From: Bacteroidales bacterium | Lineage (GTDB): Bacteria > Bacteroidota > Bacteroidia > Bacteroidales > UBA12077 | Direction of reading: 5' to 3' | NCBI GenBank assembly: GCA_030611105.1 | Contig: JAUWQL010000002.1 | Span: forward strand, 6,192 to 70,191 | Length of the DNA: 64,000 bases | Shown: positions 38,098 through 50,045 of the stretch, in pieces | Numbering within the stretch: position 1 is the stretch's first letter | Layout: every line of letters begins with the position of its first letter | Made by a program: the position numbers and the translations under genes | The notes under the pieces: generated by a model | Told to the model about the DNA's origin: nothing | The model's input: only the letters and a program-made list of their open reading frames with translations | Database searches by the model: none

Positions 38098-39411
38098 TTA
38101 TCTTTCATTTAACTCGCCAAACTTAGTATTTTTATTTAAAATATACCGAAGTGGTCTTATAATTCTCTCTAGCAATCTGATATCTTCAGTAATTATTTCT
38201 GCTGTGCCTTGCATCTCCTGTTTAAATTCTAAATCTATTCCATAAAAGGTACTTAATCCTTCAGGCAATTCTATTTCGGCTGTATAATAATTATTATTTG
38301 GAGCTAGTGAAATGGATTTTATTATTCCTTTAACCATTCCAAATTCCATATATGGATAATTTGCAAATTGAATATTTACCAATTGACCTTCTTTAACTTT
38401 TCCGGCACCCTGAAACATTAATTGTACTTTACCAATCATTTCGCCCTCATCCTGAGGAATAACTGTCAAAACCGTTTCACCGGATTTTACAGTTTGATTC
38501 TCATTCCAAAACTGATTAAAAGTAACCACTCCATTTGTTGGTGCAATAAGAACATAATGGTGTTTCCATGTATCAATTGCCGAAAGAAGATTTTCATACG
38601 ATTCCCAAATGAGAATAACCTGATCTGAAATTTGCTTTTCTTGTTGTAACTCCAATTCCAGAATACTTTGATTCAATTGTTCAACTTGAATTTCAACATT
38701 TGTGACAGACAAATTGCTTTGTTCTAAATTATACGATTTAGAAAGTAATTCTGACTTTGATTTTTCGAAATCTGATTCTGATAACAAATTCTGTGTGTAT
38801 AAAACAGAATCGCGATTGAACTGTTTCTTTGTTAACTGATATCCTTCCTTTAATATTCCGTTTTGAATCTTATAATTTGCCAGATAAAGGCCATACTTCT
38901 TAAGCTCTTTTTTATACAATTCTATTTTACGTTGATGATAATTTAACTTAATGGTTTTATTGTATTCGTCAACATTTTTAAAAAAATTTGCATAATAAAC
39001 CTGTATTTCACCAAGGATATATGTTTTGTATGATAAATTAATTATTTCTCCTGATTTGAAATTACTTTTAAACTTCTTCAAATTTTTCGCTAAACTCTCA
39101 ACCGATTCATAATTTCCGGGGTTCTCGATTACACCTACAACTTGATTTTTTGAGACTAAATCATTATCTGAAACAAATAAATTTTGAATTTTACCCGTTG
39201 TCTTTGCTAAAACAGGAGCCGGAGGATTTTCAGTGGTTAAAACAATTGGAGCTGAGACAATATCAGGATATTTAAAAAACCAACTACCAACAATAATTAC
39301 AGCTACAACAAAAAACATTATGGTAATTCCCCACCTTACAATCCATTTTGGCGGCCTGCTAAGAATCTCTTGTACTTCATTGCTTCTTAATTCAATTGTA
39401 TCTTCTTTCAT
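38098..39411 (-). CDS. HlyD-family membrane fusion / peptide-export accessory protein
   Basis: N-terminal TM, long coiled coil and C-terminal beta domain. Typical bacteriocin-exporter partner architecture. Confidence 0.8.
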   Translation of the reverse strand: MKEDTIELRSNEVQEILSRPPKWIVRWGITIMFFVVAVIIVGSWFFKYPDIVSAPIVLTTENPPAPVLAKTTGKIQNLFVSDNDLVSKNQVVGVIENPGNYESVESLAKNLKKFKSNFKSGEIINLSYKTYILGEIQVYYANFFKNVDEYNKTIKLNYHQRKIELYKKELKKYGLYLANYKIQNGILKEGYQLTKKQFNRDSVLYTQNLLSESDFEKSKSELLSKSYNLEQSNLSVTNVEIQVEQLNQSILELELQQEKQISDQVILIWESYENLLSAIDTWKHHYVLIAPTNGVVTFNQFWNENQTVKSGETVLTVIPQDEGEMIGKVQLMFQGAGKVKEGQLVNIQFANYPYMEFGMVKGIIKSISLAPNNNYYTAEIELPEGLSTFYGIDLEFKQEMQGTAEIITEDIRLLERIIRPLRYILNKNTKFGELNER

Positions 39412-39434
39412 AATGGAACACTAATAACACAGAT

Positions 39435-39827
39435 TTAACTAATTTTCACTGATTTTTTGTTATTTGTAAAGATCTTCCTCTTAAATTCAGGTTCTTTACC
39501 AAAGTTAAGAAGTAAACCAATTTCTATTGTTGTTGCTTTTAAATAATTGATTAACTGAAACTCATGTTCCTCGCAAATATTTTCAACTACCTTTAATTCC
39601 AGTATTATTCTATTTTCAACAATTATATCGGCAAAATATTCTCCTACAATTATATTATTGTAATTCACCTTAATTGGTTTCTGTTTTTCACATTCTAATC
39701 CTAACTGTTTCAATTCAATTAATAAGGCATTCTCATAGACTTTTTCCAGAAAGCCATAGCCTAAATTATTATAAACATTATAAAATGCTTTAATTATTTT
39801 ATTAGAAAGCTCTTTATGAAGAAACAT
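39435..39827 (-). CDS. GxxExxY protein (PD-(D/E)xK-like family)
   Basis: GYGFLEKVYENAL contains the GxxExxY signature. 130 aa. Confidence 0.8.
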   Translation of the reverse strand: MFLHKELSNKIIKAFYNVYNNLGYGFLEKVYENALLIELKQLGLECEKQKPIKVNYNNIIVGEYFADIIVENRIILELKVVENICEEHEFQLINYLKATTIEIGLLLNFGKEPEFKRKIFTNNKKSVKIS

Positions 39828-39882
39828 AATTTTATATTTTAATTTGCGACAATCTGTTTAATCCGCGTCATCTGCGTTCTAT

Positions 39883-42084
39883 TTAACTACCAAGTTCCAA
39901 CTGATTCTTTACCAACTCATAATACGCACCCTTCTTTTTAGTTAGTTCAGCATGTGTTCCTTTTTCTACTATTTTTCCTTTTTCCAAAACAACAATCTGG
40001 TCGGCATTTTTTACTGTACTTAACCTGTGAGCCACTACAATAACCGTTTTCCCTTTAAAAAACTGATCGAGATTTTCCATTATAATTCGTTCATTATTAG
40101 CATCAAGAGCATTGGTAGCTTCATCGAAGAATATAAACTCGGGATTTTTATAAACAGCCCGCGCGATTAATATTCTCTGCTTTTGACCCTGGCTCATTCC
40201 TACTCCGTTTTGTCCTATTTTTGTATTGTAACCTAACGGCAATGACTCTATAAACTCCTGAATATTTGCAACTTTAACGGCATTTAATAATTTTTCAAGA
40301 TCAGGATATTCATCTGAAACAGCAATGTTATTCGCTATAGAATCTGAAAAGATAAAACCATCTTGCATTACAACGCCACATTTGTCTCGCCACATGCGGT
40401 TACTTACATTATCCAGGTATAGATCACCTAAATTAATTTTACCTTTGGTTGGATTATAGAACCCGAGTAATAATTTAATCAGTGTTGTTTTACCGCTTCC
40501 GCTGGTTCCTACAATTGCCGTTATTTTCTTTTCCGGAATATTCAAATTCACATCGTCTAAAACAAATGGTGAGCGAGGCCCTTCGTATTGAAAAAATAGT
40601 TTATCGATATTTAAATCCCGATGTTCCGGTAAAATACTGATTTTTGGAGTTTCATCAGATTCTTCATTTTCCTTATTATGAATTTCACCTAAACGCTCTA
40701 AACTTATCTTTGCATCCTGGGTCGATTGTAAGAAACTAATCATTTGATTAATCGGACTATTCATCTGTCCAATAATATACTGTACAGCCAGCATCATACC
40801 CAGGGTCATATTACCATCGATAACCGATTTTGCCGCGATAAATGTGATAATTATGTTCTTTACTTCGTTTATTAAAACACCTCCAGCCTGCTGATACTGA
40901 TTTAACGACAAACTTGCCATATTAACTTTAAACAACTTTACTTGGATATTTTCCCATTCCCAGCGTTTTTGTTTTTCGCAGTTATTCAGTTTTATTTCCT
41001 GCATCCCGGTTATAAGCTGAATAACATTACTCTGATTATCGGACATTTGAGCAAATCTACGATTGTCCAAATCTCGTCTCTTTTTCATAAAAAGATATAC
41101 CCAGACTGTATATAGTACACTACCTATAAGAAATATTAAGAAAATATTTACGCTATAAATCAGCAAAACAATTCCAAATATTATCAAATTGATAAAAGAA
41201 AATAAAATATTTAAAGTTGATGATGTTAAAAAGGTTTCGATACGTTTATGATCTCCTATGCGCTGAATCAGGTCCCCAATCATTTTGGTATCAAAAAAAG
41301 AAACCGGTAGTTTCATTAATTTAATCAGGAAATCAGAAATTAAAGAAATATTGATCCGTGTACCCAAATGCAACAATATCCAACTGCGAATAAACTCGAC
41401 AATTGTACGTGAGAATATTAAAACCAGTTGGGCAATAATGATTAATGTAACAAAATCTAAATTCTGTGTATTTATACCTTTATCGACAATACTCTGAGTT
41501 AAAAACGGAAAAATTAATTGTAATAAACTTCCTAATAATAATCCCAGGAATAATTGAGTAATAATCTTTTTAAAAGGACGCAGGTAAGAAAACAAAAACT
41601 TAAAACCCGATTTATTTAATTTTTCATCATCTGCCTTGTAAAAATCAGGTGTGGTTTCAAGCAATAAGCAAAGGCCTTTATCATCTCCTCCTTCTTTTGT
41701 AGATGCCCAACCCGATAAAAACTCTTCTTTGGTAAATTTTATTAATCCACGAGCAGGATCTGAAACATACACAAATATTTTCCCGTTACGCTGTTTCTTT
41801 ATTTTATAAACAACAACAAAATGATTCTGATTCCAATGTGCAACACATGGTAAAGGTGTTTCGTTTAAAAGTTGCTCAAATGTTATCCTTACTCCCATAC
41901 TTCGGAATCCAATTGCTTCGGCAGCATCACTTATCCCAAGCATCGAAACACCTTCGCGGGTAATATAGCTTTTATCTCGTAATGTTTGTAAAGAGTAATT
42001 TTTACCATAATGTTTTGCAATCATCCTGAGGCAGGAAGGGCCGCAATCCATGGCGTCGAGTTGTTTGAAAAAGGGGAAAGGCAT
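39883..42084 (-). CDS. Peptidase C39 domain-containing ABC transporter (double-glycine peptide cleavage/export)
   Basis: ATG at 42084. The N-terminus FFKQLDAMDCGPSCLRMIAKHYG carries the C39 catalytic Cys. Six TM segments. Walker A GTSGSGKTT, signature MSQGQKQR, Walker B FIFFDEAT. Confidence 0.9.
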   Translation of the reverse strand: MPFPFFKQLDAMDCGPSCLRMIAKHYGKNYSLQTLRDKSYITREGVSMLGISDAAEAIGFRSMGVRITFEQLLNETPLPCVAHWNQNHFVVVYKIKKQRNGKIFVYVSDPARGLIKFTKEEFLSGWASTKEGGDDKGLCLLLETTPDFYKADDEKLNKSGFKFLFSYLRPFKKIITQLFLGLLLGSLLQLIFPFLTQSIVDKGINTQNLDFVTLIIIAQLVLIFSRTIVEFIRSWILLHLGTRINISLISDFLIKLMKLPVSFFDTKMIGDLIQRIGDHKRIETFLTSSTLNILFSFINLIIFGIVLLIYSVNIFLIFLIGSVLYTVWVYLFMKKRRDLDNRRFAQMSDNQSNVIQLITGMQEIKLNNCEKQKRWEWENIQVKLFKVNMASLSLNQYQQAGGVLINEVKNIIITFIAAKSVIDGNMTLGMMLAVQYIIGQMNSPINQMISFLQSTQDAKISLERLGEIHNKENEESDETPKISILPEHRDLNIDKLFFQYEGPRSPFVLDDVNLNIPEKKITAIVGTSGSGKTTLIKLLLGFYNPTKGKINLGDLYLDNVSNRMWRDKCGVVMQDGFIFSDSIANNIAVSDEYPDLEKLLNAVKVANIQEFIESLPLGYNTKIGQNGVGMSQGQKQRILIARAVYKNPEFIFFDEATNALDANNERIIMENLDQFFKGKTVIVVAHRLSTVKNADQIVVLEKGKIVEKGTHAELTKKKGAYYELVKNQLELGS

Positions 42085-42145
42085 TTTTTGTTTAAAGATA
42101 ACTATTCTAAAAATTAACAAAAACTTTTTTGCATTATATCAAATA

Positions 42146-42183
42146 GATACCATCTCCAAATATTAACATTCGGAGATGGTATC
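42146..42183 (-). promoter_or_regulatory. Perfect 12-bp intercistronic hairpin between the LytTR gene and the ABC exporter gene
   Basis: GATACCATCTCC (42146-42157) pairs with GGAGATGGTATC (42172-42183), with a 14-nt loop. Confidence 0.5.
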
Positions 42184-42218
42184 ACTGGGGTTAATAACAA
42201 CAAACCTAACTTAATAAT

Positions 42219-42572
42219 TTATACTAACTCTTGAAGATCATACACTTTTTTTAAGCTCGTGAATAATTCATCTTGCTTATTATAGTTTACAAATATTTCC
42301 TTACCGTTTTCTAATACAACTTTTGAGGCATCGGAAGGAAATACTACCTCAACATGACGAAGATTTACCAGGTATCTATTATTAAACCTGAAAAATCCCT
42401 GGTCGAATAATAAATGCTCTATTTCATTTAGGGTTAATAACAACTCGATTTTTTCGTTATTAATTAGCGTAAGTCTTGAACATTGAAGGCTTGTTTCAAT
42501 ATAGAGTATCTGACTACAATCTATTTTCATTTTACCCTTTTCTGTAGGTATATAAATATTATAAGTACTCAT
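42219..42572 (-). CDS. Stand-alone LytTR DNA-binding domain protein (no receiver domain)
   Basis: ILYIETSLQCSRLTL...FFRFNNRYLVNLRHV matches the LytTR pattern. 117 aa. Confidence 0.8.
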   Translation of the reverse strand: MSTYNIYIPTEKGKMKIDCSQILYIETSLQCSRLTLINNEKIELLLTLNEIEHLLFDQGFFRFNNRYLVNLRHVEVVFPSDASKVVLENGKEIFVNYNKQDELFTSLKKVYDLQELV

Positions 42573-42583
42573 AATTTCTTAAT

Positions 42584-43357
42584 TTAAATTATATTAAATC
42601 CTTTATTTCTTTCATGTTTTATTGGAATAACAAAAGAGAATTCCTGATTTTCAGAATCCAGAGTCAGCTCACCTCCCAGCATTGATACTGAACCGGATAG
42701 AACTTTGTAATTAAAATAGTCGAAAGAATTATCTTCATCAATTGAACACAACTGATGTTCGGTTAAAAAATCATTAGTAGATAATTTTTCCTTTGCAGGA
42801 CGAACAAATATATTCAAGTATTTATTCTCAGTTATACGATAACCCAATTCAAATTCTACAACAGGATATTTTACAGATACCAGGTTAATAATTCTTCGTA
42901 AAGCTTTTTTCAGTAACATTGAATCTGTTTCAATTTTCAAATCCTTTACCTTGGTATCCCACACAAGCATCAAATTAATATCGGTATCATTATTTTCAAT
43001 TTTTCGATTGTAAAAATCCTCAGTAAATTCCCATAAAATCTGATTTATATCGTATTTTTTTATTATTAACGAATAGTTGTTCGCCTCAAATTGGGATAAA
43101 TCCATAATATTATCTACAAACTGTAGTAATAAATTACTCCCATTTAAAATACCCCGAATATATTCTTTCTGCTTTTCATCAATTACCTCCCTTAAAACCA
43201 GCAATTTCGAAAAACCCATGATTGAGTTTAGCGGAGTTCGTATACCATGCGAGATATGAGATAAAAAACTAATTTTTTCAGTGTTATATTTTTTCTTATT
43301 TTCTCTCACGATTTTGCCGTTTATGGTTTTTATATTGTTTTTCATAGAATCTCGCAT
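42584..43357 (-). CDS. Cytoplasmic HisKA-domain protein with degenerate ATPase domain (pseudo-histidine kinase / phosphotransfer protein)
   Basis: H-box FLSHISHGIRTPLNSIMGF. No TM segments or sensor domain. In the C-terminal domain I cannot find an N-box Asn, DxGxG or GxGxG boxes. Confidence 0.65.
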   Translation of the reverse strand: MRDSMKNNIKTINGKIVRENKKKYNTEKISFLSHISHGIRTPLNSIMGFSKLLVLREVIDEKQKEYIRGILNGSNLLLQFVDNIMDLSQFEANNYSLIIKKYDINQILWEFTEDFYNRKIENNDTDINLMLVWDTKVKDLKIETDSMLLKKALRRIINLVSVKYPVVEFELGYRITENKYLNIFVRPAKEKLSTNDFLTEHQLCSIDEDNSFDYFNYKVLSGSVSMLGGELTLDSENQEFSFVIPIKHERNKGFNII

Positions 43358-43370
43358 GAATTTCTCTCAG

Positions 43371-44120
43371 TTAATTTTTGAGATCTTTTAATACTTTAGC
43401 TGCCTGTTCCCTGTAATAACTTTCATCTTTTATTATTTCATTTAATACATTTTTGGCCTTAAGGGTATTTTCAGTTTTTAAATAACACATTGCCAAATAC
43501 CATTTTGCCTGCTCAATAAACAAGTTATCATTATGAGAAATAATATTGTTAAATGACTTTGTGGCTTTCTGGTATTTTTCCTCTTCTATGTATGAAATAC
43601 CGGAATATAAGCTAACAGCTATATCATTTTCCCTGGTATCTAGAACTTCTTCGAAAAGAACTAATGCCTGTTCATAGTCTTTTTCTTCGTAGCGTTCGAG
43701 TGCATTTAACAATAATCTGTCTACTTCGGTATTTCCGGAACGATAAGTAACAGTTACATCATAAGGAGCATAATACTTTGCAAAAACTGCACTATTATCC
43801 AAATCGGGTTTTGCTAATCTCTGAACCAATCCTCCTGTTGCAATTAATAAAGCAGCTGAAGCCGCAGCATAGTAGAGTCTGCGTTTAGTAAATACCGGCG
43901 GTATTCTCTTAACCTCAGATTCTTCCGCATACATGTAGTCCATAGTTTCTCTCAGCGCCATTACATCATCTTCGATTATTGAGTTATTGATTTCAATACT
44001 CAGGTTATAATCGCGCTTTATATCGTTGTCGGTTGAAAGTAATTCTTTAAAATTGAATAATGCCTTTCCTGCTAATTCTCCATCGATATATTTTTCAATC
44101 ATTTCAAAGTTTGTATCCAT
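43371..44120 (-). CDS. Single-pass membrane TPR protein with anti-sigma-like N-terminus (paralog of 47544..48290)
   Basis: ATG at 44120 (MDTNFEMIEKYIDGEL...). TM segment LYYAAASAALLIATGGLV. C-terminal TPR-like repeats. Confidence 0.6.
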   Translation of the reverse strand: MDTNFEMIEKYIDGELAGKALFNFKELLSTDNDIKRDYNLSIEINNSIIEDDVMALRETMDYMYAEESEVKRIPPVFTKRRLYYAAASAALLIATGGLVQRLAKPDLDNSAVFAKYYAPYDVTVTYRSGNTEVDRLLLNALERYEEKDYEQALVLFEEVLDTRENDIAVSLYSGISYIEEEKYQKATKSFNNIISHNDNLFIEQAKWYLAMCYLKTENTLKAKNVLNEIIKDESYYREQAAKVLKDLKN

Positions 44121-44160
44121 AGTTTTTAATTTCAAGTTTAACTCCTTACTGTCTTATTTG

Positions 44161-44180
44161 AGACACAATGCATTGCGTCT
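44161..44180 (-). promoter_or_regulatory. 20-nt palindrome/hairpin between the peptide gene and downstream genes
   Basis: AGACACAATGCATTGCGTCT. One mismatch, which becomes a G-U pair in the minus-strand RNA. Confidence 0.4.
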
Positions 44181-44329
44181 TTACCATATCTATTTAACTC
44201 TCCGCCAACTGGCAGATTAGTTCAGGTCTTGTTAGAAAAGACCAACTCAACATTATACTTCGACAGGGCATATACATTGAGTCGGTCAACACTTTAAGAA
44301 CGTATATTTGAATCGAAAGGGAGGGCAAT

Positions 44330-44485
44330 TTAATTTCCGCCGTTTGTTGATGGTGGCCATAAATCTTCATCTTGTTCATCTCCACCTTTTATAATTATCA
44401 TTGCATTTGTATCAAGACTGTTTAAAAAATTGTTCATTGATTTTTTAGTTTCTTTAATTCCAAAAATGTTTTTTAATGTTTTCAT
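44330..44485 (-). CDS. Double-glycine-leader peptide precursor (51 aa), not in the ORF track
   Basis: Minus-strand ATG at 44485. Sequence MKTLKNIFGIKETKKSMNNFLNSLDTNAMIIIKGG / DEQDEDLWPPSTNGGN. The leader fits the L(-15), L(-12), M(-7), I(-4), G(-2)G(-1) spacing of C39-processed peptides. Heads the gene string containing the C39 ABC exporter. Confidence 0.65.
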   Translation of the reverse strand: MKTLKNIFGIKETKKSMNNFLNSLDTNAMIIIKGGDEQDEDLWPPSTNGGN

Positions 44486-44755
44486 AGTTCCTTTTTTTTA
44501 AAATTTAAAATTTATTTAATTTTTATCTTTAATGTCCTCTCACTTATATATTCCGAAAATCACCAAAAGGTGACCCCCTGTTTTCAACTTTTTTTCAACT
44601 TTTTTTATTTTATTTAGATAAGTAACTGATTTGCTGATAATTATTTTTTGCATTTTTTAAAACTTTTTTGCATTTTTATAGTATATATTAATGAAATCTC
44701 TAAAAACTCAAAAAATAATTTTTAGAAATGCCATTAAGTATAGAATAAGAAAATA

Positions 44756-47566
44756 ATGTATTTAAAAAATTTATTTTTCGTATTATTCCTGTTTATTTCG
44801 GTAAATGTACAAGCTGTTAATCAAACCCCTGACAGTCTTGAAAACATTAAAATACTGGAAAAAGCAGAATTATTCTATAACAAAGGTTTAGCATTTGGAA
44901 AAAACGGGAAACTTGATAGTGCCTTATACTATACACAAAATGCAGTTTTATTATATGAAAGTATTCAACAAACAGATAGTACTTTTTTAGCCAATTCATA
45001 CCAAAACCTTGGAATTATAAATAAATTATTGGGGAAATACAATGATGCAATTAACTGTTATAATAAAGCTGAAGAAATATATAAATTAAATTCCAACCTG
45101 TCGTTACTAGCCTATGTTTATGGAAATAAAGCCAACATTTTTTATATACAACAAGATTATTCCAAAGCAAAAGATTTCCACTTCAGGGCAATAAATATAT
45201 TTAATAGGGATTCTTTGAAATATAATAATCAATTGGCATCGACTTATAACAATCTTGGAATTATTTTTAGGAAAAATAATGATTTTGAAAATGCGATTAA
45301 ATATTATACTATCAGTCTAAGGTTAAAAGAAAACAGTAGTTATTTATATATTACAATAGGTAATTTAGCTATTTGTTACGAAAAGATAAATAATTTTAAA
45401 AAAGCAGAAAATTATTATATACAAGCAATTGAAATATCTGAAATTCTATATGGTTTAGAAAATAATAGAGTAGCATTACAGTATATGAATTATGGAGATT
45501 TTATTTCAAAACAATTAAATGATAATGAAAATGCACTTAATTATTTTAATAAAGCGTTAAATATTTATAAGAATAACTTTGGAGAAAATCACCCGGATTT
45601 ATCAATGTGTTACAATAAAGTTGGAGAATTTTATCTAACCAATAACCAAACCGACAGCGCCCTATTCTATTTTCAGAAATCGTTAATTGCCTTATCGCCG
45701 GAATTTAATGATACCAATCTAAATTCGAATCCTGAAATTAACCAGGTTCTCTCTAAAACACATTTATTGAGTTCTCTAAAAAACAAGGCTTATGCTCTTT
45801 CAAGATCGGGAACGCAAAACAAAAATATAAGTAATTATAAACTAAGTTTAGTTACTTACGATCGGGCAACAGAAGCCATTAATCTGATTAGGTCAGGGTA
45901 TTTAAACGAAGAGAGTAAATTATTTCTGGCCGATAATGAGTTTGAGACATTTTCGAATGCTTTACAAACAAGTTACGAATTATATAAATTAACTAATGAA
46001 CAAAAATACCTTGAAAAGGCCTTCAATTATAGTGAAGCCGGTAAATCAGCAATTTTAACTGAAGCTTTAAAAAATACTCATGCCTTAAATATTGGTGGTA
46101 TCCCAGACTCGTTAATCAATAAGGAAAAACAACTTGAAAAATCTATCTGGACTTACGAAGAACTGATATATGAAGAAAATAAGAAAAAGAATCCTGACCA
46201 AAATAAATTAGAATACTGGCATAAATACCTTTTCGAGAAAAAACAAGAATTTAATAAGCTTGCAGTTTATCTTGAAAATAATTTTCAAAAATATCATTCA
46301 TTAAAATATGTACAGAATACATTAAAGATTGAAGATATACAGAAAAAATTAAGCCGAAAAGATTTACTAATAGAGTATTTTTTAACCGATGATAAAATTT
46401 ACACGATTTTAATTGGCAAAACAAAATCAGATATTTTTGAACAAAACATAGATCAGTCATTCCATTATCATCTGGATAACTTATTACAATCTTTATCGAA
46501 CAATAATTTTTCAAATCATGGTTTTGAGGAATTCAAACAATACCAGGAATCATCATTTTTTATTTACAAGCAATTGCTTAAACCAATCGAAAATAGAATA
46601 ATCAATAAAAATTTAATTCTAATTCCTGATGGGAAACTGGCATACTTGCCATTTGAAGTATTAACCACTGAAAATATTTCGTTTAAACGTATAAATTATA
46701 AGGCTTTGCCATATTTATTGTATAGTAATCGTTTTAGCTATTCGTATTCAGCTACATTTTTATTTGAAAATAGTGATGTTACTAAAAGAGCCGATAAAAA
46801 ACTAGGGGCATTTGCTCCAACATATGATAATATTGACGGGTTACAAGGTGAGTTCTCTTCATTTCGTCAGGAATACCGGGAAAGACTATTTCCGTTAAAA
46901 GGCATTAAAGATGAAGTTCAAAAAGTATCAGAACTTATTGATGGTGATCTGTACCTGGATTTTGATGCCAGTGAAAGAACTTTTAAAAAAGTGGCTTCTC
47001 AATATGATATTCTTCATTTGGCTATGCATACTATAATGGATGATCAGAATCCGATGTATTCGAAAATGGCGTTTACGCAAAATGAAGACAGCATTGAAGA
47101 CGGTTTTCTGAACACTTACGAATTATATAATATGAAATTAAATAGCCGTATGGCTGTTTTAAGCTCGTGTAATAGCGGAAGTGGTAAATTACACCGTGGC
47201 GAGGGCGTGATGAGTATGGCCAGAGGTTTTATATATTCAGGTTGTCCTTCGATAATAATGACACTTTGGTCGGTAGAGGACAAATCGGGGGTTAAATTAA
47301 TGACATCTTTTTATGAAAATCTGCTAAAAGGCAAAACAAAATCTGAATCTCTTCAAAAGTCAAAAATAGATTTTATCAATAATGCTGACCAGTTAAAAGC
47401 TCACCCTTACTTTTGGTCGGGTTATGTTGTTATCGGAAATAATAATGCATTATTTACTTCTTATAAAAAGCATTTTATTTATGCCGGAATTATTTTGCTC
47501 CTTTTAACAATCGGAATATTGCTTTTGGTTAAAAACAAGAAAACTAATAAAGAATCTTTAAAATAA
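44756..47566 (+). CDS. Exported TPR-repeat CHAT-domain (caspase-like) protease with C-terminal membrane anchor
   Basis: Signal peptide MYLKNLFFVLFLFISVNVQA. Many TPR units. CHAT His/Cys dyad contexts ILHLAMHT and VLSSCNSGSG. C-terminal TM IYAGIILLLLTIGILLLV. Confidence 0.9.
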   Translation: MYLKNLFFVLFLFISVNVQAVNQTPDSLENIKILEKAELFYNKGLAFGKNGKLDSALYYTQNAVLLYESIQQTDSTFLANSYQNLGIINKLLGKYNDAINCYNKAEEIYKLNSNLSLLAYVYGNKANIFYIQQDYSKAKDFHFRAINIFNRDSLKYNNQLASTYNNLGIIFRKNNDFENAIKYYTISLRLKENSSYLYITIGNLAICYEKINNFKKAENYYIQAIEISEILYGLENNRVALQYMNYGDFISKQLNDNENALNYFNKALNIYKNNFGENHPDLSMCYNKVGEFYLTNNQTDSALFYFQKSLIALSPEFNDTNLNSNPEINQVLSKTHLLSSLKNKAYALSRSGTQNKNISNYKLSLVTYDRATEAINLIRSGYLNEESKLFLADNEFETFSNALQTSYELYKLTNEQKYLEKAFNYSEAGKSAILTEALKNTHALNIGGIPDSLINKEKQLEKSIWTYEELIYEENKKKNPDQNKLEYWHKYLFEKKQEFNKLAVYLENNFQKYHSLKYVQNTLKIEDIQKKLSRKDLLIEYFLTDDKIYTILIGKTKSDIFEQNIDQSFHYHLDNLLQSLSNNNFSNHGFEEFKQYQESSFFIYKQLLKPIENRIINKNLILIPDGKLAYLPFEVLTTENISFKRINYKALPYLLYSNRFSYSYSATFLFENSDVTKRADKKLGAFAPTYDNIDGLQGEFSSFRQEYRERLFPLKGIKDEVQKVSELIDGDLYLDFDASERTFKKVASQYDILHLAMHTIMDDQNPMYSKMAFTQNEDSIEDGFLNTYELYNMKLNSRMAVLSSCNSGSGKLHRGEGVMSMARGFIYSGCPSIIMTLWSVEDKSGVKLMTSFYENLLKGKTKSESLQKSKIDFINNADQLKAHPYFWSGYVVIGNNNALFTSYKKHFIYAGIILLLLTIGILLLVKNKKTNKESLK

Positions 47567-48290
47567 ACTGTGCATCAGATTTCTGTATCATATTTTCTTC
47601 AACTATTTTTTTTAAGATATTTTCAGCACTAATCATTTCATTTTGTTTTAAATAAACAAGTGCCAGATACCAATGAGATTGTTCCCGGAAAATATGATTC
47701 TTTTTTAAAATCAGATCATTTAAATATTTTTCGGCTTCACTCAAATTATTTTTCTCAATTTCGCAAACAGACAAATAAAACTGGCTCATATAATTTGTGC
47801 TATCCTTTTCCAGTACCTGCTTAAAATACACAGAAGCCATTTCGTACTTTCCGTCATCATAATAATTAAATGCATCATATAATATCTTTTCAATTTCAGT
47901 TTGATCTACAGGAGATCTGAAACTCATAACTGCAGGATATGCAGAATAATAGGATTTAAAAACCTCATTCTTATCCATTTGTCCTAATGGGAAAATATAA
48001 ATATTTGCAATTACAACAATTAAAATAATAACAGCGGCAACAGCAGAATATATAAATGGATTTTTAATTTTTTTAGTTAAGGCAGGTTTGGTATTTATTA
48101 TTTCATCTAAATTATTTCTTAAACTTATAATATCATCTTCAATTATGGCTTCGTTAATATCTTTTCTAAGCAAAAATTCTTTCATCAGGTCAGGATTGCT
48201 TCTTAACGATTCTTCAAATTCTACTTGTTCCCTAACCGACATTTCATTCATCAAATATTTTTCTATCAAATCGAATTTATTCTCCATCAC
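47544..48290 (-). CDS. Anti-sigma-like single-pass membrane TPR protein
   Basis: N-terminus LIEKYLMNEMSVREQVEFEESLRSNPDL, a TM segment, then TPR repeats. 4-nt overlap with the upstream sigma gene. Confidence 0.6.
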   Translation of the reverse strand: MMENKFDLIEKYLMNEMSVREQVEFEESLRSNPDLMKEFLLRKDINEAIIEDDIISLRNNLDEIINTKPALTKKIKNPFIYSAVAAVIILIVVIANIYIFPLGQMDKNEVFKSYYSAYPAVMSFRSPVDQTEIEKILYDAFNYYDDGKYEMASVYFKQVLEKDSTNYMSQFYLSVCEIEKNNLSEAEKYLNDLILKKNHIFREQSHWYLALVYLKQNEMISAENILKKIVEENMIQKSDAQFILKILY

Positions 48291-48850
48291 TCATCTTTAT
48301 AATTCGGGTCACTCTTAATATATCGCACAAGTTGTTCTTTACATTTATATTTTTTGCGTTTTATATATATCATGCTATCAATCCCTAACTCTTCAGCTAT
48401 ATCTTTTAAAGGTACTTTTTTTAAAAATAATTTCAATAATTTCCGGCAATCTTTTTCAAGTCTTTTAAAATGTTTTTGATATAATTTATATTGTTCGTTT
48501 TTTTTATATTCATCTATCGTTATGTCAGGAATATTATCGTATTCAATATAAATATTCTGATTTTCGATATTTTCTTTCTGCTTCGATAATTGTTTTATCC
48601 AAATATATCGACAAACAGAGTATATATATGATTTAAACGAAGATGTAAGTTCAAAGTTACCTTCTTTAATTTTTCTATAAATAATTATTATACTGTCCTG
48701 AAATACATCCTTCGCATCCTGTACAGATCCCCTGTTATCTAATACAAATCTTTTTATGGTTGGAAAATATACTAAGTATATGCTTTTTAGAATTTGCTTA
48801 TCTTGTTTACGAATTCCTTCAACTATTATTTTATTATCTATTGATCTCAA
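48287..48850 (-). CDS. Sigma-70 family (ECF-like) sigma factor
   Basis: Region 2-like DVFQDSIIIIYRKI...YIYSVCRYIWIKQ and region 4-like LKDIAEELGIDSMIYIKRKKYKC. Confidence 0.75.
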   Translation of the reverse strand: MRSIDNKIIVEGIRKQDKQILKSIYLVYFPTIKRFVLDNRGSVQDAKDVFQDSIIIIYRKIKEGNFELTSSFKSYIYSVCRYIWIKQLSKQKENIENQNIYIEYDNIPDITIDEYKKNEQYKLYQKHFKRLEKDCRKLLKLFLKKVPLKDIAEELGIDSMIYIKRKKYKCKEQLVRYIKSDPNYKDE

Positions 48851-48901
48851 TTTAAAGAAAGGATATATATAATTTCAACCAAATCTAAAAAAATAAGATT
48901 A

Positions 48902-48940
48902 TAAAAAAAATAAAAAAAGGCCGTAAAGCTTTACGACCTT
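48902..48940 (-). terminator. Rho-independent terminator
   Basis: GGCCGTAAAG / CTTTACGACC stem (48919-48940) with a long U-run on the minus strand. Confidence 0.65.
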
Positions 48941-48963
48941 ATAAATAAACAGTTATGATTTTT

Positions 48964-49380
48964 TTAAATAGAATATAAATATTTTACAATTGTTTTATCC
49001 ATGATAACTAAAAGAATAACTCCAAATAAGGCTATTAATAAATAAGGCGATAAACTTAATTCGCTCCAAAATTTCGAAAAGAAATCAGCGAATGCGTTAA
49101 GATATGCCGGTGTTTGAAATCCATCGGAAACCTGAGAAAAATCCAATCCATGCTTTATAAAATAAAAGATAAAAAAACCAACTACCATAATACACATCGA
49201 TATAGCCAGCCAAATATTACTTTGTTTATCGTCATTAGTAATAAAACTAACCTTTATAGCCGGGTCTTTTAATATTCGGCTCATTACATTTTTTGTAAAA
49301 TCCGAACCAGGTTGCTGAACCTCTCCTTTACTAATTAACTTCTTAGTAAATTCATCGGTATTAAATTTATTATTATTCAT
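48964..49380 (-). CDS. Membrane protein, candidate anti-sigma factor
   Basis: Starts 2 nt after the ECF sigma stop. Two or three TM segments. Confidence 0.45.
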   Translation of the reverse strand: MNNNKFNTDEFTKKLISKGEVQQPGSDFTKNVMSRILKDPAIKVSFITNDDKQSNIWLAISMCIMVVGFFIFYFIKHGLDFSQVSDGFQTPAYLNAFADFFSKFWSELSLSPYLLIALFGVILLVIMDKTIVKYLYSI

Positions 49381-49381
49381 A

Positions 49382-49957
49382 TCACAGAATTGTTTTTACT
49401 TCATCTTTTAAAATTGTTTTTAGCTCATCGTAAAATCGCTTTCTTGCCCTATGCAATTTTACCTTTACATTTGAGAGTGTTAGTCCTGTAATTTCGCAAA
49501 TTTCTTCAATTGTATTTTCTTGTAAATAGTATAATGTTATTATTAAAGCATCATCTTCCTTTAACTTTTCAATTGTCTCATTAATGTATTTTTTTTGTTC
49601 ATTTCTGGTTAATTCGTTTATGGCATTATATGCTGAAACCACTTCGCTATCCGGCAATACTGTATCTTCAACATTATATACCTCAATCTGTTTTTTTCTT
49701 AATTTCGAAATTGCTCCATTATACGTTATCCTGTATAACCATGTTGAAAATTTAGATTCAAATTTAAAATCTTTCAACGAATTAAATGCCTTTACAAATG
49801 TATCCTGAGCCAACTCCTCAGCATCTTCCGAATTTTTCAACATTCTTAATGCGATTGTATATACCATACCTTTATATTCATCAACCAGGTATGTAAAAGC
49901 ATTAATATCACCTCTTAAAACGCGTTCGATATAGTATTTGTCTTGTTTCAATCCCAA
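49382..49957 (-). CDS. ECF-type RNA polymerase sigma factor
   Basis: AEELAQDTFVKAF, WLYRITYNGAISKLRK, and region 4 IEEICEITGLTLSNVKVKLHRAR. Confidence 0.85.
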   Translation of the reverse strand: MGLKQDKYYIERVLRGDINAFTYLVDEYKGMVYTIALRMLKNSEDAEELAQDTFVKAFNSLKDFKFESKFSTWLYRITYNGAISKLRKKQIEVYNVEDTVLPDSEVVSAYNAINELTRNEQKKYINETIEKLKEDDALIITLYYLQENTIEEICEITGLTLSNVKVKLHRARKRFYDELKTILKDEVKTIL

Positions 49958-50045
49958 TCTTTTTCAGTATGACGCTTATTAATCGTTTTAAGTTACAAAT
50001 AATATTTAAAATGATTAAAATACTTACAAAACATTTTAAACATTT

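Follow-up and report, generated by a model that had tools for sequence, protein, structure and literature searches.

A conserved triad of sigma factor, anti-sigma factor and CHAT protease genes in Bacteroidota, and a tentative mechanism for envelope signalling

The DNA described here (the window) is a stretch of 64,000 nucleotides (nt) from a Bacteroidales bacterium (GenBank assembly GCA_030611105.1, contig JAUWQL010000002.1, positions 6,192 to 70,191 of the forward strand). It carries a gene for a tetratricopeptide repeat (TPR)-CHAT protease that lies between the genes for two paralogous TPR membrane proteins, A and B; the gene for B is coupled to the gene for sigma1, a sigma factor of the extracytoplasmic function (ECF) type. 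The triad of sigma, anti-sigma and CHAT genes is very probably a real, conserved and unstudied functional unit. As the best single mechanism we propose, tentatively and with less than even confidence, that this core is a three-part envelope signalling module in which the CHAT protein would act as a site-1-like protease on the TPR anti-sigma factors. No paper describing the split Bacteroidota module was found in the literature searched, and CHAT is unmentioned in the main text of the ECF reclassification paper (PMC7826278). New in this analysis are a promoter motif and its placement, and the occurrence of an A-type protein as the sole anti-sigma factor in several relatives. The genes and codons on which the argument is built are the following.

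44756..47566, plus strand: TPR-CHAT protease gene, 936 amino acids (aa), Pfam CHAT and TPR; product predicted to be exported and membrane-tethered
47027..47029, plus strand: codon of catalytic His758 of the CHAT dyad
47168..47170, plus strand: codon of catalytic Cys805 of the CHAT dyad
47544..48290, minus strand: paralog B, single-pass putative anti-sigma factor, apparently coupled to sigma1
48287..48850, minus strand: sigma1, divergent ECF-type sigma factor, partner of paralog B (TIGR02937, Sigma70_r2)
43371..44120, minus strand: paralog A, of B-like architecture and without a sigma gene upstream; second gene of an operon that begins with a peptide gene

Linkage of the three genes

A profile of the anti-sigma family was searched against 401 genomes sampled across the phylum, and about ±9 kb was taken around 40 full-length members from about 25 genomes; a CHAT gene was counted as a partner if it encoded more than 600 aa and lay within this span. 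A sigma gene is situated directly upstream of 38 of these 40 distant family members, and a CHAT gene was present within 9 kb in 31 of the 40 loci. The CHAT genes occur in three gene orders, which follow the clades of the family tree, with a small remainder.

13 loci: CHAT gene convergent and adjacent, as in the window
5 loci: CHAT gene co-directional and directly downstream
11 loci: CHAT gene divergent, 1.3-5.3 kb upstream
2 loci: CHAT gene in other placements

An earlier note on this DNA, made from the letters alone, had let its proposal depend on the co-conservation of the CHAT gene with its neighbours; the linkage found in the distant loci reaches far beyond simple synteny and bears the proposal out on this point. 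In genomes that hold several modules, each module has a CHAT gene of its own. In 16 of 56 triads (compared with 1.06 on shuffles) the anti-sigma protein and its CHAT protein pointed to the same nearest foreign relative, and the two proteins agreed in 13 of the 18 informative paralog cases; the genes of a module are inherited together. Within the order of the window, the family was detected in 61 of 151 sampled genomes, and a CHAT gene accompanied it in 28 of the 40 loci retrieved; of the 12 without one, at least five are cut off by a contig end. The family as a whole amounts to 931 clusters at 50% identity (E ≤1e-30).

A scan with the CHAT protein itself yielded six close relatives, in which CHAT is 59-86% identical and the whole neighbourhood is syntenic, including the genes for a DUF6249 protein, an M6-like peptidase and MscS. 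Because unrelated genes are kept there too, these six closest relatives are uninformative on function. The paralogy, the constant pairing with a sigma gene and the linkage to CHAT recur in dozens of unrelated genomes, so the arrangement of the locus is not due to chance.

Architecture of the anti-sigma proteins and the protease

Paralogs A and B share 30% identity across 253 aa, that is, over their whole length (E 6e-41). Each consists of a helical N-terminal region, one transmembrane (TM) segment and C-terminal TPRs with Pfam TPR_19 and TPR_2 matches, as the earlier note had described for the two proteins that bracket the CHAT gene. The start of paralog B overlaps the stop codon of sigma1 at 48285-48290 (ATGAGTGATG), by 4 nt if GTG is the start codon and by 1 nt if it is ATG, and the genes of paralog B and CHAT are convergent with a 23-nt overlap of their 3' ends (47544-47566); both the coupling and the convergence had been noticed before and are present as described, and the other sequence features given in the earlier note were likewise confirmed at its coordinates. 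Sigma1 exceeds the cut-offs of NCBIfam TIGR02937 (56.8 bits, cut-off 42.9) and Pfam Sigma70_r2 (25.7 bits, cut-off 24); its region 4 was not detected by Pfam.

Paralog B can be divided into a degenerate ZAS domain (residues 1-66), a TM segment (79-99), a juxtamembrane segment and a periplasmic 3-TPR domain (131-248). A profile built from the first 70 or so residues of 33 family members matches the anti-sigma factor RslA (PDB 3HUG chain B, E 8.2e-6) exactly across the HxxxCxxC zinc motif. Pfam zf-HC2 is matched by 8 of the 33 members, and two of them retain HLIDCPLC; A and B have lost the zinc ligands (S/L, N/D and L/I stand at the ligand positions) and are thus non-zinc variants. To judge from these matches, the N-termini of A and B are degenerate zinc-type anti-sigma domains. 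One related locus (L102:3146-4492, plus strand) encodes a sigma1-type sigma factor fused in frame with a TPR anti-sigma protein (448 aa), which supports, though only indirectly, the view that the TPR proteins would bind the sigma factor physically and inhibit it. What the earlier note had called anti-sigma-like thus gains substance from the RslA match across HxxxCxxC, from the members that keep the zinc motif and from the in-frame fusion. Another locus (L092:9565-11085, minus strand) carries three tandem copies of the anti-sigma-like N-terminal domain ahead of the TM segment and the TPRs, and multi-domain forms of this kind, of about 500 aa, make up roughly one third of the best 150 matches in the database; such tandem domains might bind several sigma molecules.

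In an AlphaFold2 (AF2) model of paralog B (mean predicted local distance difference test score, pLDDT, 74), four N-terminal helices are followed by the TM helix and a confident TPR domain of 3.5 repeats, and the juxtamembrane stretch falls below a pLDDT of 50 at residues 115-123. In a fold search the TPR domain resembled the peptide-binding 3-TPR modules of YbgF, BamD, SycD/IpgC/PcrH and the CHIP/Hop type. A reading of paralog B as a split DdvA scaffold was considered and found unsupported, since the fold search gave these generic 3-TPR modules and not the DdvA scaffold. Of the juxtamembrane residues of paralog B (YY114/115, R125-S126), R125 is retained by 53 of the 55 order-level members and Y115 by 51; the segment with R125, placed between the TM segment and the TPR domain, is a candidate cleavage or recognition site, as alignment and model suggest.

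The family tree places A and its orthologs inside an order-level clade (support 98), most members of which are sigma-coupled, and B and its orthologs in a separate clade outside that of A. The orthologs of B are more diverged among themselves than those of A, as the identities among orthologs illustrate.

Linker and TM segment: 31% (B to B), 76% (A to A)
TPR domain: 54% (B to B), 71% (A to A)

The 76% conservation of the linker and TM segment of A hints at a specific intramembrane partner for this protein. A sigma1-type gene abuts the CHAT gene directly, with no anti-sigma gene between them, in three related loci (L088, L089 and L092), and the family is represented there solely by an A-type protein, encoded on the far side of CHAT beside a double-glycine (GG)-leader peptide gene, a HisKA-like gene or both. 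In other respects the gene order of L089 is that of the window (DUF6249, sigma2, membrane protein, sigma1, CHAT, peptide, A, HisKA). With no anti-sigma factor at all, an ECF sigma factor would escape control; the most likely role of the A-type proteins is therefore that of anti-sigma factors to the sigma factors of the sigma1 type. If they have this role, the window holds two anti-sigma factors for one sigma factor.

The CHAT protein comprises a signal peptide (residues 1-20), a TPR array (about 36-430), the CHAT domain (603-895; Pfam CHAT, E 2.1e-53) and a C-terminal TM segment (907-925), the multiple TPRs (TPR_12, E 5e-39) lying N-terminal to CHAT. Its N-terminus (MYLKNLFFVLFLFISVNVQA, then VNQ) is signal-peptide-like, and the C-terminal hydrophobic segment is followed by Lys-rich KNKKTNKESLK. 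Of 32 partner CHAT proteins, 30 have retained both the N-terminal signal sequence and the C-terminal TM segment with basic residues after it; the exported 936-aa protein with a C-terminal anchor of the earlier note is thereby confirmed. The CHAT domain would so face the periplasm, on the same side as the TPR domains of A and B. Against solved structures, a profile of the CHAT domain gave DdvA (PDB 8ROT_B) as the best match (E 1.5e-8) and the Csx29 chains of Craspase as the next; in the alignment His758 and Cys805 correspond to H862 and C907 of DdvA, and the dyad is kept in 31 of the 32 partners, so that the catalytic dyad on which the earlier note had made its case depend is present. A search of PDB with the full-length sequence returned TPR matches only. 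An AF2 model made with seven close orthologs aligned has a pLDDT of 80-94 in the TPR part. The CHAT gene of L088 (11755-14645, plus strand) is broken into open reading frames (ORFs) of 262 and 649 aa, either by a frameshift or by an assembly error.

Promoters, the peptide operon and a proposed mechanism

Footprinting was carried out on aligned orthologous loci, seven or eight per spacer, and the elements recovered are listed here together with the genes of the operon that contains paralog A.

44550..44576, minus strand: 27-nt bipartite promoter-like motif GGGTCACCTTTTGGTGATTTTCGGAAT, core of an invariant block in eight orthologous loci; precedes the operon of the peptide and A
44660..44685, plus strand: conserved AAAC-N17-GTATA element upstream of the CHAT gene, with ECF-like spacing; kept in the orthologous loci aligned across the element
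48880..48887, minus strand: TAGATTTG, housekeeping-type -7 element upstream of sigma1; kept in the orthologous loci whose spacer reaches so far
44330..44485, minus strand: GG-leader peptide gene, 51 aa, core DEQDEDLWPPSTNGGN; first gene of the paralog A operon
38098..43357, minus strand: rest of the operon behind paralog A, with the five genes below
42584-43357, minus strand: HisKA-only protein
42219-42572, minus strand: stand-alone LytTR protein
39883-42120, minus strand: C39-ABC exporter
39435-39827, minus strand: GxxExxY insert
38098-39411, minus strand: HlyD

The 27-nt motif follows the pattern GGGTnACCTTTT-N9-..GGAAT, which can also be written GGGTCACC-N15-GGAAT. Its position weight matrix (PWM) found 22 sites in 3.1 Mb of module loci (both strands), 20 of them upstream of module genes; the count is partly circular, as nine sites trained the matrix, and at least nine non-orthologous sites are new. 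The motif stands 14-21 nt before the sigma/anti-sigma operons of four related loci (L090, L104, L108, L121), before HisKA-like genes (L090, L108) and before GG-leader peptides (the window, L001-L006, L082, L084). When the same PWM was applied to the window's own genome (7.5 Mb, both strands), only five sites were found, of which three are strong: the one in this locus, one before a YdjC-like gene (contig C86:286-312, minus strand) and one before the gene for a 633-aa exported regulator with TPRs, a TM segment and an AraC-type helix-turn-helix domain (contig C69:22982-23008, plus strand). The YdjC-like gene and the TPR-TM-AraC regulator are candidate members of a sigma1 regulon.

On the simplest reading of these placements, the 27-nt motif would be the promoter read by the sigma factor of the module. 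The same reading would have the motif autoregulate sigma and anti-sigma in most relatives and, in the lineage of the window, drive the peptide operon, with sigma1 and B expressed constitutively. In the window, the module motif was not found upstream of CHAT or of sigma1, where the AAAC-N17-GTATA element and TAGATTTG, respectively, are situated instead. The housekeeping -7 promoter consensus of Bacteroidota is TAnnTTTG, and TAGATTTG, which follows the terminator of the sigma2 operon in the order of elements ahead of sigma1, fits it. A terminator scan flags the motif at 44564-44580 (minus strand) as a weak hairpin (CAGGGGGTCACCTTTTG); because there is no gene upstream on that strand to terminate, this hairpin is taken as a by-product of the motif sequence.

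Orthologs of the peptide in close relatives keep the leader and a run of D/E residues followed by WPP(S/T). Beyond them, small ORFs with a GG leader and a short, acidic, Pro-rich core adjoin the module in 7 of the 40 order-level loci. A peptide hidden Markov model matched close relatives only and a leader regular expression was added; with both, GG-leader peptides were found in none of the 40 class-level loci, a search by which divergent peptides may be missed. The cores measure 11-25 aa, are acidic and Pro-rich, and contain Cys in one of eight cases. Present in order-level and absent from class-level loci, the peptide appears to be a lineage-specific addition and not part of the ancestral triad. 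The exporter has matches to Peptidase_C39 (E 1.6e-33), ABC_membrane and ABC_tran, and the HlyD gene comes after it. The HisKA protein contains a HisKA domain only, without a TM segment or a recognised ATPase domain, and the LytTR protein (117 aa) is without a receiver domain. HisKA-like genes adjoin the triad in 12 of 40 order-level loci, two of them (L090 and L108, as above) with a motif copy of their own, and exporter genes recur as well.

From the gene content, homology, topology signals, catalytic dyad, linkage across genomes and motif positions observed, we infer the binding and cleavage steps, the identity of the sigma factor that reads the motif and, from the promoters, the wiring, as follows. 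Sigma1 and B would be made from the housekeeping-type promoter, and sigma1 would be held at the inner membrane by the single-pass anti-sigma factor, the degenerate zinc-type domain of which would be cytoplasmic and the 3-TPR domain periplasmic. A periplasmic cue, in this lineage possibly the exported acidic WPP peptide, would activate CHAT, which would then, in the manner of a site-1 protease, cut the anti-sigma factor within the juxtamembrane segment, a stretch that is conserved and probably flexible. An RseP-type site-2 protease would complete the cleavage and sigma1 would be freed; a gene with a PF02163 (M50/RseP) match is located on another contig of the same genome (C29, 3027-4274, E 5.2e-55). 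Freed sigma1 would read the GGGTCACC..GGAAT promoter of the operon of peptide, paralog A, HisKA-like protein, LytTR protein and exporter, which would provide positive feedback via the peptide and negative feedback via induced anti-sigma factor A.

The fullest version of this scheme is an autoinducing circuit in which the pair of TPR anti-sigma factor and CHAT senses the WPP peptide in the periplasm, CHAT clips the anti-sigma factor, and sigma1 reads the promoter of the peptide and exporter genes, with B as constitutive gatekeeper and A as sigma1-induced reset. We regard this version as unlikely; if true, it would bring to Gram-negative bacteria a type of peptide autoinduction that is not known from them.

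Known systems, rival explanations and neighbouring genes

The closest described system is DdvA/DdvS of Myxococcus xanthus (PDB 8ROT/8RW5). DdvA unites ZAS domain, TM segment and TPR-CHAT in a single polypeptide, with a dimeric arrow architecture and a CHAT active site that lacks the three-helix motif. Its authors propose a cut of the linker by CHAT in trans, with RseP acting afterwards (PMC11506125); a periplasmic CHAT as site-1 protease is, for DdvA, already a published hypothesis. Shared with the window are an ECF sigma factor, a single-pass anti-sigma factor with an N-terminal domain of the ZAS type, and a periplasmic TPR-CHAT with a His-Cys dyad. In the window, however, anti-sigma factor and TPR-CHAT are encoded by separate genes, CHAT is equipped separately with a signal peptide and a C-terminal anchor, and the anti-sigma factor has lost the zinc ligands and bears a small 3-TPR domain of its own. 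DdvA-like fusions were found only in Myxococcota and one Comamonas species, and DdvA/DdvS controls an island of CRISPR and cyclic oligonucleotide-based antiphage signalling system (CBASS) genes (PMC11506125), whereas the module of the window is widespread in Bacteroidota and no CBASS/CRISPR genes were found in the window (ORFs; PADLOC). By its domain make-up it appears to be a split analogue of DdvA and not a member of that family. The nature of the signal and the role of CHAT as the site-1 protease were questions that the DdvA work did not settle, and there protease and substrate are one chain.

For the window we infer that CHAT may cut these TPR proteins and that the peptide may trigger CHAT. 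With protease and anti-sigma factor as separate proteins, the split module makes the step in which a protease cuts an anti-sigma factor directly testable. It offers natural variants (two anti-sigma paralogs, sigma genes without a coupled anti-sigma gene, and sigma/anti-sigma fusions), a promoter motif usable for a reporter and, in this lineage, a self-made exported peptide as candidate ligand; trans-cleavage, ligand dependence and regulon are testable by simple co-expression and reporter assays. Any mechanism found would annotate a common, unnamed signalling pathway of Bacteroidota.

The earlier note held CHAT-dependent ECF activation to be undemonstrated, a statement that is outdated: Csx29, a cytoplasmic TPR-CHAT protease, was shown experimentally to cleave Csx30, which relieves the inhibition of the ECF-like CASP-sigma (PMC10028731). 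Craspase (Cas7-11/Csx29, Csx30, CASP-sigma) thus resembles the module in that a TPR-CHAT protease is encoded beside an ECF-like sigma factor and its inhibitor. It differs in being cytoplasmic, RNA-guided and CRISPR-associated, and Csx30 is unrelated to ZAS-type anti-sigma factors; the sensing side in the window is, by its signal peptide, periplasmic, and no cas genes were detected nearby (window ORFs, PADLOC). With the regulated intramembrane proteolysis of anti-sigma factors (DegS/RseA/RseP, PrsW/RsiW/RasP) the module has in common an anti-sigma factor that crosses the membrane once, a first cut presumably made by a periplasmic protease, and an M50 site-2 protease in the genome, but its candidate site-1 protease is a caspase-fold cysteine protease instead of a serine or metalloprotease and is encoded together with the sigma/anti-sigma pair. 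In the microbisporicin system MibX/MibW, as outlined in PMC4203916, an exported ribosomal peptide is likewise proposed to inactivate an anti-sigma factor and free an ECF sigma factor for its own cluster; that, however, is an actinomycete lantibiotic system with an antibiotic peptide, and it includes no CHAT protease or TPR anti-sigma factor. The Gram-positive pheromone circuits ComC-ComAB-ComDE and BlpC-BlpAB-BlpHR likewise combine, in a single operon, a GG-leader peptide with a C39-ABC exporter, its accessory protein and a LytTR protein, whereas the window is without a membrane sensor kinase or a receiver-LytTR protein and the set of sigma, anti-sigma and CHAT would be its sensing part.

Several observations weigh against cleavage of the anti-sigma factor by CHAT. 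No CHAT gene lies within the ±9 kb span in 9 of the 40 distant loci, and of 36 CHAT genes sampled in the order only about 10-12 have a sigma or anti-sigma neighbour. R125-S126 had to be rejected as a family-wide cleavage site, as it is kept within the order and not across the class. The AF2 model of the CHAT domain reaches a pLDDT of about 25 (seven-sequence alignment) and allows no pocket or docking argument. In DdvA, too, CHAT-mediated cleavage has been proposed and not shown (PMC11506125). Finally, the module motif precedes an extra exported gene and then CHAT in L090, L099 and L100, so that CHAT could be the output rather than the trigger. This last arrangement, which would probably put CHAT in the sigma regulon, is the mainstay of the principal rival, according to which the triad is functional and CHAT has no part in cutting the anti-sigma factor: CHAT would be an output or parallel arm, with other envelope proteins or the exported peptide as possible substrates (the latter to be matured, trimmed or destroyed), and the anti-sigma factor would be switched by a ligand on its 3-TPR domain or by another site-1 protease. 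The likeness of that domain to peptide-binding 3-TPR modules (YbgF, SycD/IpgC/PcrH, CHIP/Hop type), the acidic, Pro-rich GG-leader peptides beside the module in seven of the 40 order-level loci, and the MibX/MibW model, which as set out in PMC4203916 frees an ECF sigma factor by an exported peptide without CHAT, all speak for it. Peptide processing, however, cannot be the conserved role of CHAT, which is still kept in the class, where no peptide was found at any of the 40 loci, and the fusion of anti-sigma factor and TPR-CHAT in DdvA argues for a direct relation of the two; we consider this rival possible, yet doubtful.

The flow might also run in reverse: the TPR proteins would be membrane adaptors or inhibitors of CHAT, as securin is of separase, the sigma factor would merely couple their abundance to transcription, and the substrates would lie elsewhere in the envelope. 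Bound inhibitors keep CHAT proteases of the separase type under control (PMC11506125), the protease gene has a paralog on either side, and the TM conservation of A (76%, vs 31% for B) suggests a specific membrane partner; yet the N-terminal domain is a bona fide anti-sigma domain, sigma-coupled and once fused to a sigma factor, and the module has no other conserved candidate substrate, which makes this arrangement improbable. Still less is to be expected of an envelope-level defence or conflict sensor like DdvA/DdvS that would detect phage or competitor attack and switch on protection, the peptide being a bacteriocin-like weapon. GG-leader peptides with C39 exporters are usually bacteriocins, but the cores found here (11-25 aa, acidic, Pro-rich and mostly without Cys) are unlike known ones. 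The CBASS/CRISPR island under control of DdvA/DdvS (PMC11506125) and the CRISPR link of Craspase (PMC10028731) point towards defence as well; against it, PADLOC matched none of eight locus proteins, and no defence genes were seen among the window ORFs or the module-gene matches of related loci. That mere inherited synteny holds CHAT beside the sigma and anti-sigma genes, with no functional link, is very improbable: the six closest relatives do keep the entire region, unrelated DUF6249, M6-like peptidase and MscS genes included, but the linkage persists through three gene orders across many families of the class, paralogous modules in one genome each keep their own CHAT gene, and chance proximity is put by our own estimate at about 1% per locus (about 3 CHAT genes, a genome of about 4 Mb and a 16-kb span). 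Cleavage of the TPR anti-sigma factors by CHAT is accordingly retained as the working proposal.

Other features of the locus and its surroundings are listed below.

49382..49957, minus strand: sigma2, canonical SigW-like ECF sigma factor (Pfam Sigma70_r2, E 1.1e-18; r4_2, E 1.7e-13)
48964..49380, minus strand: two-TM protein, 138 aa, probable anti-sigma factor of sigma2, no Pfam or NCBIfam match
48917..48940, minus strand: intrinsic terminator after the operon of sigma2 and the two-TM protein, 10-bp stem then T-run, conserved in orthologs
49970..49997, minus strand: ECF-type autoregulatory promoter of sigma2, TGTAAC-N17-CGTCA, conserved in orthologs
L090:13913-15217, L096:11286-12515, L099:7365-8615 and L100:12869-14110, all minus strand: SGTV.YHGD proteins of related loci

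The earlier note had counted the second pair of sigma factor and membrane protein (48964-49957) among the components of the module and had given it a terminator of its own. The terminator is there (10-bp stem, 48940..48917), but membership in the module was rejected, as the pair is equipped with an ECF promoter and a terminator of its own and, at the 40 distant loci, the family member is never accompanied by a second sigma gene. The genes of sigma2 and the two-TM protein are separated by 1 nt, and their pairing is kept in L001-L006, L082 and L089; from these signals the pair appears to be a separate, self-regulated ECF unit and a bystander.

Outside the window, contig C38 of the same genome (20017-25530) carries a second CHAT gene (1243 aa, with a signal-like N-terminus and without a C-terminal TM segment), which converges on a sigma-like gene (Sigma70_r4, E 3e-11) and a zf-HC2 anti-sigma gene whose product has a non-TPR periplasmic part; by its gene content this is apparently a second, different set of sigma, anti-sigma and CHAT genes. 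In a subgroup of related loci, an exported protein of about 410-434 aa with the motif ..SGTV.YHGD.. is encoded between the module motif and CHAT (coordinates above); it is absent from the window.

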